Below are positions 9,119-13,072 of a stretch of 39,398 nucleotides of DNA, one piece after another (the stretch's first letter is position 1; every line of letters starts with the position of its first letter). A program made the translations under genes and the position numbers. Below the pieces are notes generated by a model, which was given only the letters and a program-made list of their open reading frames with translations, was not told the origin of the DNA and ran no database searches. This stretch comes from Promethearchaeati archaeon (GTDB taxonomy: Archaea > Asgardarchaeota > Heimdallarchaeia > Heimdallarchaeales > Heimdallarchaeaceae): positions 1 through 39,398 of the forward strand of contig JABLTJ010000031.1 in the NCBI GenBank assembly GCA_013166775.1. Direction: 5' to 3'.

Positions 9119-9310
9119 TTAGCATGATAGAAGAGTTTGTAAAACGTTATAGGAGTTTAGGGCAGAAGTCTCAATATAACCAAAGCGACGAAGACGAACA
9201 TAACCGAGAACATTATCGCGATCAATAGAGCTAGCTTCAGTGAGATCGTATTTGTTGCCACAGATGATGATGGGAATGTCGGGACATTTGGGGATGACCT
9301 CGTTGATCCA
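9119..9310 (-). pseudogene. C-terminal fragment of a Ras-superfamily (Rab/Rho-like) small GTPase
   Basis: WINEVIPKCPDIPIIICGNKYD (G4 NKxD) and YIETSA (G5) are present, G1-G3 are absent. About 46% GC over 9181-9300, above the flanks. Confidence 0.75.
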
Positions 9311-9373
9311 GATGCATCTCAATATGCTGATAGAGAGATATTACTTACAAAACTGCAATCAAGAAACCTATAG
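9304..9373 (+). pseudogene. Diverged 3' remnant of an ABC ATPase paralogue
   Basis: 60/70 nt identical to 4957-5026. Encodes DPDASQYADREILLTKLQSRNL* versus [22 protein letters not shown]. Confidence 0.85.
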
Positions 9374-9502
9374 CAAGAAGTTAAAAAAACCTAAGTACGT
9401 TCGTTTGATATTGACATGTTTATTCATTTGTTTTATTTTTAATATATTATATACAATACTGAATTTGCCTAATTATATGCTGAACAAGGATTTGTCATAA
9501 AA

Positions 9503-9764
9503 TTTCCTTGGGGTTTTTAGGGTGAAGTGTAGTCTAGTATGCAGATAGGCAAGAATTACAACCGTAAAGGCCCAAACCCGTAATTCTTCCCTTATCCCCA
9601 AAAAGGAAAAAGGAGTTGAAAGAGAAGAAGTATAGGTAGTTCTTTTGGGATCTTAATCGAATTCCTGAAGCAATTATACACGTAGAACTATCAGTGGTTC
9701 CTCTACTGGTTTTACAGAACAGACTAGAAGAGGAACCATTGATGTTAACTAATTCGATTATGAT
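9503..9764 (+). ncRNA. Candidate structured RNA / leader upstream of tnpB
   Basis: Stems at 9551-9559/9580-9588, 9654-9663/9751-9760, 9690-9704/9729-9743 and 9706-9712/9721-9727. The non-Watson-Crick pairs in these stems are G-U on the + strand. Confidence 0.5.
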
Positions 9765-9948
9765 TTCACGTTTATTAATAGTAACAATTTTAGGAGCTAA
9801 AACTCATGAAAATTGAAAAGGAAATAAACAAAGAGAACTAAAAAATAAACTCAAGAAATATGAAAGATATGGAAAAGTAAAAAGCACTCATCAAGCACCA
9901 TCAGTTACTGGGTATGAGAATATCAAACTCAGGATAAAGACAGAACTG

Positions 9949-11379
9949 ATGACTGTTCAAGAGTGTGAAAGGTTGAAGAGAATAACCGCAAGAGATACTA
10001 GAATCTGTCAAACCTATCTTAGAATCATTAAACACAATGAGGAGAAACAAATCCTAGTAAATGGGGAATTTCGAAGACTAATCAAGAAGGATTTAACAGT
10101 AGACAAATCCATTTTGGATAAATTGACTTTAACTACTTCTAAAAGAACAACAGTTCCTCACGATTTGAAAAAACGCTATTCTCACTGTTCACATAATGAA
10201 TTCCAAGAATGTAGAGATAAAGCTATCTGGACTGATGAAAGTTGGAGAAAACTTCAAGCATATTCTACAATGGAACTGAAACGACCACAATTCAAGACGA
10301 AAACATCACGACCGATGTATCCAAGAATAACACAAGGCAGTTATACAGTAAGGGTTCATTTTGAATCCGGTAATACTGATGCTAAGCTTTGGTTAGAATT
10401 GAGAGACTCCCTTGATTCCAAAAAATCTAATAAGAGAATCCATAAGCGACTTAAGCTACCTTTAACTTATTCCCCTTATCACGAGAATAAACTAAAGCCA
10501 GAGCAAATAAAACAGATAGAACTAGTCTATAAATCCAAAGAACGACAGTGGTATGCACATTTCATTCAGAAATATTCTGTCCCTAGTTATCAGTCTACCA
10601 ACCCTCCAGCAGTTTTGGGAGTAGATCTAGGAATAAAGAAGACAGCTGTTGCAGTGTTACTTACCCCCAGAGGGAAAGTGATCATGGATGAACTCTGCTT
10701 CATTGTCAATAAGGAGAGACAATCGAAAATATGGCAACTCAATAAACGGATTAAGGATATTCAGAAAAAACTAGATACAAAGATAAACAATGGTCAATCC
10801 CATAACCAGCTTAACGTTAAACTTTCTCAATTGCGAAGAAAACGTCGTTCTATTACTGAACAGGAGCTGGGTTATGCTGTCAATCAACTTGTTGAGTTCA
10901 TTCTTCAGTTGAAGAAACAGTATAATCTGTTTGTCTCTGTTGGCTATCCTAAAGACATTCGCAAAAGTTACCTTCGTGGTAGTGGAAGCAAATCCCATCG
11001 ACGACAACTCCATAAGTGGTATTATCGTCTTTTCATCACTAAGCTGAAATACAAGCTTAAACGCTATGGATTTGAACCTCATCATGTAGTAGCAGTCAAG
11101 GAGAAAAATACCTCTAATACTTGTTCCAGTTGTAATTCAACAAACACTACCCGTACAGGACAAGGACAGTTCAATTGCCACAAATGCAAATACGAACTCG
11201 ATGCTGATCTGAATGGAGCAAAGAACATAGCAAAGAGGTTGATACGATATGCTTTGAAACCAAAACTACGCCATCCTTTGAAACCAAAGAACTACTATGT
11301 ATGGGACCTACTAACGAAAGACAACCATCCGATAGAGCTTTTTAAAAGTCTCCGGCCCCTAGGTAAATGGCTTAGGTGA
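9949..11379 (+). CDS. tnpB: TnpB-family RNA-guided endonuclease with rearranged RuvC-II (true N-terminus probably further upstream)
   Basis: RuvC-I LGVDLG (D226), bridge-helix region, VSVGYP (G332 at the usual Glu), VKEKNTSNTCSSC (E385 + CxxC), CHKC, RuvC-III DADLNGAKNI (D420). Confidence 0.9.
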   Translation: MTVQECERLKRITARDTRICQTYLRIIKHNEEKQILVNGEFRRLIKKDLTVDKSILDKLTLTTSKRTTVPHDLKKRYSHCSHNEFQECRDKAIWTDESWRKLQAYSTMELKRPQFKTKTSRPMYPRITQGSYTVRVHFESGNTDAKLWLELRDSLDSKKSNKRIHKRLKLPLTYSPYHENKLKPEQIKQIELVYKSKERQWYAHFIQKYSVPSYQSTNPPAVLGVDLGIKKTAVAVLLTPRGKVIMDELCFIVNKERQSKIWQLNKRIKDIQKKLDTKINNGQSHNQLNVKLSQLRRKRRSITEQELGYAVNQLVEFILQLKKQYNLFVSVGYPKDIRKSYLRGSGSKSHRRQLHKWYYRLFITKLKYKLKRYGFEPHHVVAVKEKNTSNTCSSCNSTNTTRTGQGQFNCHKCKYELDADLNGAKNIAKRLIRYALKPKLRHPLKPKNYYVWDLLTKDNHPIELFKSLRPLGKWLR

Positions 11380-11535
11380 TTCTGAAAAGAATACATCGTT
11401 TCGTTGGATCCGATGTGCAGGTCGAGAATCTGTCCTACCTTAGTTTGACAGGTTCTATAATGAGTGCCCTAAATCAAGAGATGATTCCAGAAGACCGGTA
11501 CTGTCACTCTATGACTTGTTCATCTTGTCATATTA
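11350..11535 (+). ncRNA. Candidate TnpB reRNA/omegaRNA overlapping the tnpB 3' end
   Basis: Consecutive hairpins: 11358-11376, ATTCT-GAAA-AGAAT at 11379-11392 (GNRA loop), 11393-11416, 11425-11456 and 11503-11515. This is the canonical position for a TnpB guide scaffold. Confidence 0.65.
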
Positions 11536-11549
11536 TACAGTTTTACTAC

Positions 11550-11570
11550 AATGAAGAATTATTCTTCATT
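11550..11570. repeat. Perfect palindrome AATGAAGAAT-T-ATTCTTCATT
   Basis: 10-bp arms with a 1-nt centre. The right arm starts a 15-mer that is repeated at 11780-11794. Confidence 0.6.
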
Positions 11571-11936
11571 CATTCTACGCTGGTTTAGGATGAGTCTTGA
11601 AATGACCTTCACAAAAATCTATTTCAGGTTTTTTTGAAGCGACTAACTCATGCAAAGGATTATCCCCATAAGATCCAATCAGTCATTCAAATCTTTGGAG
11701 ATATAACGGTTCTCATCAACCTTTAGCTGTTCCACAAAGAGATTCTTGACATTACATCTTCTCTCTCCTTTTCCTTTTTTTCTTCATTCATTCTCTTATT
11801 AGTTATCTTAGAAACACTCGGAATTATTTATGTCATTTAGGATTTACCTAAAAATGCAACAAGTGAAGGGCTAGATGTGTGTTTACAATAGTAAAAATAA
11901 GTTAATTTGATAAATATGTGAGTATATACACTATAC

Positions 11937-12398
11937 GTGCATGTCGGATTTATAGTAAAAAATGTATCTGGCCAAGAACTAGAAGGAAAATTGATTTCAA
12001 TCCCCAGAAAAGATAGGGAAATGTTTCCCAAAGAAGGAGTTTTATTTTTTATTGAGTCTTATGATGAATATTTTGGTTCTCATATTACAAAGAAGGGAGA
12101 GATTACGGGATTAGATGAATGGTTTTCCAATTATCCAGTCAAACAGAATGATACGATTATTATTTCCAAATACTCGGAGGGTTATTACCTTACAACAATG
12201 TCAGAAATAGTAGAGCAACAACAACACTTTGTAATAGAAATGGAAAGAATACTAGCATTAGAACCTGGTGATATTTTGTGTCCAAATTGTAGATATAATT
12301 TGGAACATGCAGGGAAAGGGACTAAAGATGATTCCTACATCTTAAAGTGTGCTCGATGTGGATTTACTTTGGTAAAAAAAAGTCATTTTGATATATAG
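11937..12398 (+). CDS. Hypothetical protein: B3/pseudobarrel-like N domain + C-terminal Zn ribbon
   Basis: LISIP..DREMFP...GLDEWF....VKQNDTIII pattern; CPNC...CARC. Confidence 0.55.
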   Translation: MHVGFIVKNVSGQELEGKLISIPRKDREMFPKEGVLFFIESYDEYFGSHITKKGEITGLDEWFSNYPVKQNDTIIISKYSEGYYLTTMSEIVEQQQHFVIEMERILALEPGDILCPNCRYNLEHAGKGTKDDSYILKCARCGFTLVKKSHFDI

Positions 12399-12436
12399 GT
12401 GAAAATATCCATGTATTATATGCATTTTTCTTTTGA

Positions 12437-13072
12437 ATGCATTTAATCTTCATGAAGCTTATGCTACATAATCTATGGATAGCTAAAGATACAGGTGAAT
12501 GTCTTTTTCATCGAAAGTATGGTAGCATAGAGCATGATGAGAATTTAATTACTAGCTTCTTAAGTGCAATAGAGATTTTTGCACAGAACATAGATGAGGG
12601 TTGTGATTTTCTTCAAACTTCAAGTTACAAGTTTGTTTATACAACTGGGAAAAACACTGTAACTGTAGCATGCATCGACAATTGTGACGATGAATCACTA
12701 GTGAGACAAGAAATTTCTTCCATTCAAGATGAGTTTATTAGTAGATACTCAAAAGATCTTGAAGAATGGAATGGCAGGGTTGAACGCTTTGGAGCAATGA
12801 AAGGTTTCGTTGATGATCATTTACATAAATATGGAAAACCAATCAAAAACATGTTAACGTCTAGACTAGAGCTAGATCCCTCAATGGGGAAGAGAGACAT
12901 GAATTTAAAGTTTAGTTTGCAACAAGATAAAGTGATTTCCCTCTTGAAATATAAAGGCGCAGCAACGATTGGTGAAATAGCAAAACTAATGAAACTCACA
13001 GAACCAGATACAGAAAAAGCTGCTAAAGCACTTCTTTATAACAATATTATCAGAGAAGTTGCGAATTCTTGA
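12437..13072 (+). CDS. Longin-like domain + C-terminal winged HTH protein
   Basis: N-terminal 'MLHNLWIAKDTGECLFHRKY...LITSFLSAIEIFA' longin-like pattern; C-terminal 'ATIGEIAKLMKL...KALLYNNII'. Confidence 0.6.
   Translation: MHLIFMKLMLHNLWIAKDTGECLFHRKYGSIEHDENLITSFLSAIEIFAQNIDEGCDFLQTSSYKFVYTTGKNTVTVACIDNCDDESLVRQEISSIQDEFISRYSKDLEEWNGRVERFGAMKGFVDDHLHKYGKPIKNMLTSRLELDPSMGKRDMNLKFSLQQDKVISLLKYKGAATIGEIAKLMKLTEPDTEKAAKALLYNNIIREVANS

Follow-up and report, generated by a model that had tools for sequence, protein, structure and literature searches.

TnpB is the ancestor of Cas12 and of the eukaryotic Fanzors. The ends of IS200/IS605 elements fold as top-strand DNA, while the structures described in the IS200 tnpA leader and in the fold-backs of IS10 and IS50 each amount to one small hairpin that either blocks the ribosome-binding site or halts transcription entering from outside. 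To our knowledge, large RNAs in TnpB left ends have so far been known only as group I introns, which define the IStrons. In these, a group I intron is located in the left end of IS605/IS607 tnpB elements (Zedaveinyte et al., bioRxiv 10.1101/2023.11.20.567912). The TnpB element described here, which comes from a genus of Heimdallarchaeota and is accompanied by no transposase gene, probably carries a lineage-specific, functional structured RNA module in its left end, on the tnpB strand. IStrons are the closest precedent for this module and share with it a long left end, a large sense-strand structured RNA upstream of the protein genes, a 3′ omegaRNA and a TGAT-like TAM. The element nevertheless differs from them in that a search with the Rfam group I models (E ≤ 10) gave no match and neither a pseudoknotted core nor splice-site features were found. 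Pairing between its left and right ends is also missing, it resides in an archaeon and it lacks a transposase gene.

Other known systems are further removed. The structured leaders of IS transposase mRNAs, which are thought to shield expression from the insertion context, likewise consist of sense-strand element structure between the left end and the gene, but the present module has two domains over ~215 nt, leaves the Shine-Dalgarno (SD) sequence unpaired and precedes tnpB rather than a transposase gene. The omegaRNAs of IscB and IsrB (HEARO) resemble it as large structured RNAs on the same strand upstream of an RNA-guided nuclease gene of the IS200/IS605 superfamily. Here, in contrast, the nuclease is a TnpB (TNB zinc ribbon, guided_TnpB) with its own 3′ scaffold, no HEARO match was found, and the RNA is predicted to start behind a promoter-like box, 52 nt inside the element, and so would have no flank-derived 5′ guide; an IscB-style upstream omegaRNA, one of the options raised in the original prediction, therefore fits poorly. 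The bridge (seek) RNAs of IS110/IS1111 are also structured non-coding RNAs in a non-coding IS end beside an enzyme gene, but that enzyme belongs to another family, and no element-specific matches of loops to flanks or ends were detected in our copies. A bridge-RNA reading was rejected, as the longest matches of each left end to its own flanks were no better than those of mismatched pairs. With ISDra2-type solo-tnpB (IS1341-like) elements the locus shares a TAM at the left boundary, tnpB, a 3′ scaffold and a sharp right boundary followed by variable sequence. Its left end is 316 nt long, however, compared with about 100 nt, and its TnpB has an N-terminal extension and an apparently relocated RuvC-II glutamate. 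Of the features of the solo-tnpB class, a TnpB with RuvC motifs and a zinc ribbon and a conserved 3′ scaffold are present, while no Y1 TnpA was found anywhere in the genus.

The stretch of DNA analysed (39,398 nucleotides, hereafter the window) is contig 93 of a 3.85-Mb genome in 115 contigs, and the element occupies 9492-11651 on its + strand (Table 1). About 316 nt at the left end (9492-9805) are non-coding, and the structured module lies inside this region. An alignment of the flanks of 19 copies placed the onset of homology at TTG(T/G)CA after nGAT or nGAC, and the unrelated left flanks of other copies switch exactly at TTG, which is therefore the true element boundary. The TAM-like motif reads TGAT in four of the six copies with an unrelated left flank. 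Read on the minus strand, the invariant left terminus (9492-9510) is GGAAATTTTATGAC, which resembles the BRE/TATA promoters of the host; speculatively, such a promoter would fire outward into the left flank.

Table 1. Features of the TnpB element and its left flank in the window (positions in the window).
Feature	Position	Strand	Description
Left flank common to the paralogous copy	9304-9491	+	ABC ATPase tail and HerA-like gene remnant
TAM-like motif	9488-9491	+	GGAT in the window copy; abuts the left end
Left-end terminus	9492-9513	+	Highly conserved block, mean top-base frequency 0.89
TATA-like box 1	9514-9521	+	TTTTTAGG; proposed (inferred) archaeal promoter of the structured RNA
Domain 1	9544-9596	+	Two helices and an apical part variable in length and sequence
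Purine tract	9600-9615	+	A5GGA5GGAG; conserved single-stranded linker between domains 1 and 2
Domain 2	9656-9758	+	Outer stem, unpaired segment and hairpin
TATA-like box 2	9770-9778	+	GTTTATTAA; 35 nt ahead of the ATG
Shine-Dalgarno sequence	9792-9796	+	AGGAG; conserved as AGGAG(G), 8-10 nt ahead of the start codon
tnpB	9806-11379	+	True start ATG at 9806
Right end with usual omegaRNA scaffold	11330-11651	+	Terminus ...TAACTCAT in 17/17 copies
Polypyrimidine tract	11757-11785	+	29 nt, 105 nt past the right end

Relative to the paralogue and 15 other copies, tnpB in the window lacks one nucleotide of an A run near 9816, because of which its frame is open only from 9817 and the predicted ORF begins at M9949; the deletion reflects either a fresh pseudogene or a homopolymer assembly error. 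The corresponding residue, M49, is invariant across the family, and intact TnpB copies are 508-537 aa in length. Pfam analysis of the window ORF identified a Cas12f1-like_TNB domain (61.6 bits, cut-off 26.3), while the intact paralogue scored 94.5 bits with the NCBIfam model guided_TnpB, just below its cut-off of 100. Residues D269, E428 and D463 and the CxxC..CxxC motif are invariant in 17 copies. The conserved right end extends over ~270 nt and has a sharp boundary, after which the copies diverge, and the presumed guide starts at 11652. The left-end module is thus accompanied by what its conservation identifies as an ordinary 3′ omegaRNA scaffold, in agreement with the original prediction that the upstream structure is additional to the usual guide scaffold.

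One paralogous copy of the element is present in the same genome (contig 27), and, of the 24 other genomes of the genus, 11 contained the region according to a DNA search at the family level. In total, 17 full-length copies were retrieved from nine genomes of this single genus and aligned (alignment A1). All 17 share a common layout of left end, ~316 nt of non-coding sequence, SD sequence with an ATG or TTG start codon, TnpB and right end, and the module is kept in every one of them. A motif search across 399 genomes of the phylum confined the module to the genus, and a covariance model of domain 2 (R1) searched against 83 genomes of the class retrieved only tnpB-linked copies in the genus; one marginal match of 26 bits in another family was taken for chance. 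No free-standing copies of the module were detected in the 83 class genomes or the 399 phylum genomes, and the only locus returned by a pattern scan of metagenomes was not confirmed by the domain-2 model. With a single exception, a truncated copy, the module always lies directly ahead of tnpB. This copy (locus L037:2227-2385, minus strand) is a truncated left end on a contig that also carries a full element, 2.3 kb downstream of it; it retains domain 1 and the 5′ half of domain 2 before diverging and scores 43.6 bits with the model.

The nearest sister TnpB group (L067-L082) is found in MAGs of other Heimdallarchaeota, where several copies of a ~490-aa protein with 41-45% identity occur per genome. 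Its left end is only ~88 nt long and consists essentially of a TATA box (TTTTTATAGG) ~36 nt ahead of the ATG, which agrees with the earlier claim that the module is larger than an IS200/IS605 left end needs. An HMM of the right end of the module-bearing family detects the sister right ends as distant homologues, whereas the left-end HMM found nothing in the sister group. Since the right ends are homologous and the sister left end is this short, the module is an addition, placed between the terminus of the element and tnpB. It is specific to this lineage, as are a ~35-residue Lys/Glu-rich extension at the N terminus of TnpB and the SD-led start. The two copies of the window genome are 97% identical from the left end through the initial ~55 nt of tnpB and ~75% identical over the remainder of the element (68% at the protein level), which indicates that the module was recently exchanged between diverged elements. 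Comparison of window positions 9491-9863 with L002:1687-2060 gave a mosaic of identities, with 93% in the ABC tail, 65-70% in the remnant and 97% in the left end.

The insertions are frequently associated with a HerA/FtsK-like ATPase gene (Pfam DUF87, ~900 aa). In five copies this gene ends within the first bases of the left end (for example, L147:1263-3959 and L149:1248-3953), and a sixth copy has the gene end about 90 nt upstream of the element. Where the gene ends inside the element, the left-end terminus provides its stop codon, and the insertion replaces its last codons. A remnant of the 3′ end of the HerA-like gene precedes the element in a further six copies, comprising the window copy, its paralogue and four others. 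The decayed remnant in the window lies at about 9430-9491, and the left-end terminus holds a TAA at 9497-9499. In both the window copy and the paralogue, this remnant is preceded by the tail of an ABC ATPase gene, which in the window (9304-9372) is ~93% identical to the paralogue flank. These flanks suggest that the element may home into, or prefer, the 3′ ends of the HerA-like gene family. In a further paralogue, the element is located ~70 nt downstream of the same site.

At 9119-9372 of the window, the C-terminal half of a small Ras/Rab-like GTPase gene (minus strand) abuts the 70-nt ABC ATPase tail (+ strand). The N-terminal half of the GTPase was not found to the right of the element (11652-12450), and the GTPase/ABC junction is a rearrangement scar carried in with the left flank of the element. 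An intact empty site was not recovered from the two loci examined, both of which are rearranged on the left side. In locus L045, from another genome, the presumed guide, given by the 20 nt past the right end (2927-2946), matches the 5′ portion of a tRNA gene; three relatives (L157, L158 and L159) carry this gene intact at the orthologous locus. The left flank of L045 is unrelated, and the insertion was therefore one-ended or rearranged.

All of the stems listed in the original prediction are present in the sequence. Folding of the + strand of 9503-9764 gave -78.6 kcal/mol, compared with -57.3 ± 5.0 kcal/mol for 200 dinucleotide shuffles (z -4.28), none of which matched the native energy, while the minus strand reached a z of -2.51. 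RNAalifold analysis of the 17 left ends in A1 recovered the domain-2 hairpin and two helices in domain 1, GATAGGC/CCTTATC (9544-9550/9590-9596) and GAATTA/TAATTC (9553-9558/9581-9586), which are 98% and 94% paired, respectively, by pair counts and feature a C-G to U-A change in four copies. An all-against-all helix scan contributed two further pairings, the domain-2 outer stem and a weak TTTCC/GGAAA match that is 95% compatible without any double-sided change; nothing else was outstanding. In domain 2, the outer stem (9656-9663/9751-9758) encloses a hairpin (9690-9709/9724-9743), in which covariation is seen at the base and the central 9 bp hardly vary. A conserved unpaired segment of 26 nt (9664-9689) within this stem includes GCAATTATACAC. 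Across the five helices, 96.6% of cells are paired, compared with 36-54% when the partners are slid. The two core domains are 93-97% paired (slid controls 30-54%), with compensatory changes at 5-7 pairs. Double-sided changes were counted in 18 cells of the five helices, compared with 7.2 ± 2.0 in shuffles (0/500 as high). For domain 2 alone (alignment A3), seven pairs show double changes, four of them in the outer stem, and 20 cells compare with 7.8.

Two features distinguish the strands. The helices contain 70 G-U but only 7 A-C pairs, extending across the family a bias that had first been noted for the window copy, and the scores of the domain-2 covariance model are 100-124 bits for the + strand but 32-45 bits for the minus strand. 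Selection therefore acts on the single + strand, and the same bias and asymmetry ruled out a double-stranded palindromic DNA operator. The prediction of a strand-specific structure was thus borne out by folding better than in shuffled controls and by conservation and covariation among homologous tnpB loci, whereas its finer architecture stood only in part. The core helices of both proposed domains were conserved, but an outer GGGG/CCCC stem is paired in just 49% of cells and is specific to the two copies of the window genome. A GGGTTT/AAACCC pairing, which had been viewed as pseudoknot- or switch-like, reaches 81% compatibility, part of it falls where the copies are hard to align, and these pairings are not conserved.

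No known RNA family accounts for the module. Searches against Rfam, using the gathering score for the whole window and E ≤ 10 for 9300-11800, returned nothing but a chance miRNA match, and tRNA/tmRNA prediction returned none. The suggestion of a ribozyme or IStron-like remnant gained nothing from these searches or from the covariation, in which no group-I-like pseudoknot core is seen. Inspection by eye for K-turn and C/D box words showed that CUGA and UGAUG-like words are not conserved. The ~260 nt had been described as free of ORFs, and indeed the copies share no open frame at a conserved position, which also speaks against a small gene in the module. The module is real and under selection, and is apparently undescribed.

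The sequence ahead of domain 1 is consistent with a promoter. Box 1, which is TTTATAAG-like in most copies, features an invariant T..TA at a fixed distance of 30-31 nt from the invariant G9544 in all 17 copies, while the spacer between them is variable (0.68) and the least conserved part of this region. Host genes in the window have similar TATA boxes 27-38 nt ahead of their starts. This fixed spacing and variable spacer correspond to the TATA-to-start geometry of archaea, which places the predicted RNA start close to 9544, where the first helix begins. In addition, the conserved SD sequence, together with the TTG start codons that replace ATG in 5 of the 17 copies, argues for a leadered mRNA that starts upstream of 9792. 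In the consensus fold, the SD region forms no pairs. About half of the copies have no co-oriented upstream gene and would therefore need an internal promoter.

These considerations lead to a model in which the module is the element-promoted, long structured 5′ leader of a tnpB-omegaRNA transcript, a reading that we put forward tentatively and with somewhat less than even confidence. The element would carry its own archaeal promoter (box 1) at the far left, and transcription would start at around G9544, exactly at the foot of domain 1. The resulting leader of ~260 nt would comprise domain 1 as a 5′-terminal stem, the purine-rich linker and the long hairpin of domain 2, and the transcript would continue through the SD sequence into tnpB and then the 3′ omegaRNA. 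Such a leader could make the output of TnpB and guide RNA independent of the insertion site and set their level post-transcriptionally, with the 5′ stem protecting the transcript end and the sequence-invariant domain 2 offering a protein-binding site, perhaps for a host factor or for TnpB itself. Besides the observed conservation, covariation, strand bias, anatomy and distribution, this model has components that we infer, namely the promoter, the start site, continuity with tnpB and any regulatory effect.

Several observations run against the leader model. The consensus fold contains no conserved helix that occludes the SD sequence or the start codon and thus reveals no simple mechanism of cis-regulation. 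Domain 2, with its almost invariant stem and the adjoining conserved segment, looks more like a protein-binding site, and that stem would be equally in keeping with a DNA recognition site or an RNA acting in trans. The BRE-like stretch ahead of box 1 is G-rich, whereas the counterparts of host TATA boxes in the window are A-rich. Furthermore, the 35-nt spacing of box 2 matches that of the sister group and of several host genes that appear leaderless. tnpB could thus be expressed from a near-leaderless mRNA without the module, which would then be a separate small RNA.

At the other end of the element, a polypyrimidine tract follows in all 17 copies. This tract is 12-35 nt long (at least 18 nt in 15/17 copies), begins 14-127 nt past the right end (for example, L045:2965-2987), often has ACA directly before it and is the generic reverse complement of the purine tract of the left end. 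It could be a guide-RNA terminator, a target-site preference or a pairing partner. One orthologous locus free of the insertion also has a 14-nt pyrimidine run, so the tract may be a feature of the target site. By eye, the purine and pyrimidine tracts appear to match in several of the copies, but permutation tests gave p values of 0.15, 0.10 and, varying with a scoring scheme picked post hoc, 0.04-0.47, and co-evolution of the tracts is not claimed. Pairing of the left end with the right end or omegaRNA was limited to two weak, wobble-rich 6-bp matches, none of them conserved or covarying, and the best duplex sites of the unpaired left-end segments fell in inconsistent places. nhmmer found no similarity that would identify the left end as a copy of the omegaRNA scaffold. 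For an anti-repeat, as the tracr-like RNA envisaged originally would need, no covarying helix with the right end was found; the purine and pyrimidine tracts are generically complementary, with no significant element-specific co-variation.

These results bear directly on the possibility that the module is a separate trans-acting small RNA of about 230-250 nt, extending from box 1 to the T-rich stretch before the SD sequence and acting as a second RNA partner or cofactor of TnpB. It could, for example, pair through its purine tract with the pyrimidine tract after the guide (a duplex of about -20 kcal/mol, available after every copy), or bind the Lys/Glu-rich N-terminal extension of TnpB, with which the module co-occurs in this lineage. 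The promoter-like geometry ahead of domain 1 would serve such an RNA just as it would a leader, and box 2, located between module and gene, could give tnpB its own mRNA. Nonetheless, a covarying pairing with the right end is lacking, the purine and pyrimidine tracts of one element match no better than mismatched pairs under the scoring schemes used, and the distance from scaffold to tract is variable. Moreover, the sister group has a homologous 3′ scaffold that works without the module, and the place where a terminator would be required offers only a weak T4 run. We consider a separate small RNA unlikely. Its most specific form is an Asgard TnpB with two element RNAs, an omegaRNA and an independent ~240-nt left-end RNA, in which the purine tract would pair with the polypyrimidine tract and the hairpin would dock on the N-terminal extension; if true, the tract pairing could define or process the 3′ end of the guide or help to choose tract-adjacent insertion sites. 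With no conserved pairing to the right end or flanks, the two-RNA TnpB system that had been proposed gained no support, and we regard this form as distinctly doubtful. Alternatively, the structure could be a top-strand single-stranded DNA used by a transposase in excision or integration, in the manner of the IS200/IS605 end hairpins. The top strand has the sequence of the RNA, so G-T-tolerant covariation and strand bias are also expected of single-stranded DNA; the location of the structure within the left end fits as well, and the almost invariant stem suggests sequence-specific recognition. The hairpin is, however, ~200 nt from the boundary, which for Y1 transposases is far past the end-recognition reach known from IS608, and it has no counterpart at the right end. 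We also know of no described end structure as large as two multi-helix domains. A search for Y1 TnpA (PF01797), the transposase type covered, identified the gene in none of 25 genomes of the genus (72-92% complete), although control genomes scored. The lack of a Y1 gene, the remoteness of the hairpin, the missing right-end counterpart and the ~88-nt ends with which the sister group manages together favour RNA over DNA, making a transposase substrate unlikely.

A module that processes or insulates against host transcripts reading into the element, either as a self-cleaving or spliced RNA (an archaeal counterpart of the IStrons) or as a nuclease substrate, would be in keeping with the neighbourhood of the insertions: at least 6 of the 17 copies lie behind a co-oriented HerA-like gene and six more behind its remnant, so read-through is likely there, and IStrons provide a precedent for a large ribozyme in a TnpB left end. 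The Rfam search at E ≤ 10 retrieved no ribozyme or intron, though, and covariation supports two simple stem domains rather than a pseudoknotted core. No left-right end pairing was found from which splice-site helices or a bulge-helix-bulge might arise, the last base of the element is T where group I introns end in G, and the insertion truncates the ATPase instead of preserving it, all of which render this explanation quite improbable. If the module had no function and were just the relic of some other inserted sequence, carried along as a passenger of the element, its restriction to one genus and one element family would be accounted for. Yet its helices have been kept by compensatory changes and its conserved blocks persist among elements whose TnpB proteins have diverged to 59-79% identity and whose flanks cannot be aligned. 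Given this covariation and its retention in all 17 full copies, a passenger is very improbable.

Heimdall-group archaea are the closest known relatives of eukaryotes. A second, unrelated class of left-end RNA with covariation support would show that TnpB elements have repeatedly recruited RNA modules, which would control or extend the RNA-guided nuclease. If the module is a regulator, it would offer a handle on how TnpB dosage is set in archaea, while a second RNA partner would supply an independent case of the RNA splitting or accretion that has been invoked to explain how type V CRISPR arose. In either case, the module represents a new RNA motif that is well defined, with clear boundaries and 17 sequences, and for which the sister TnpB family without it would be a useful natural control.
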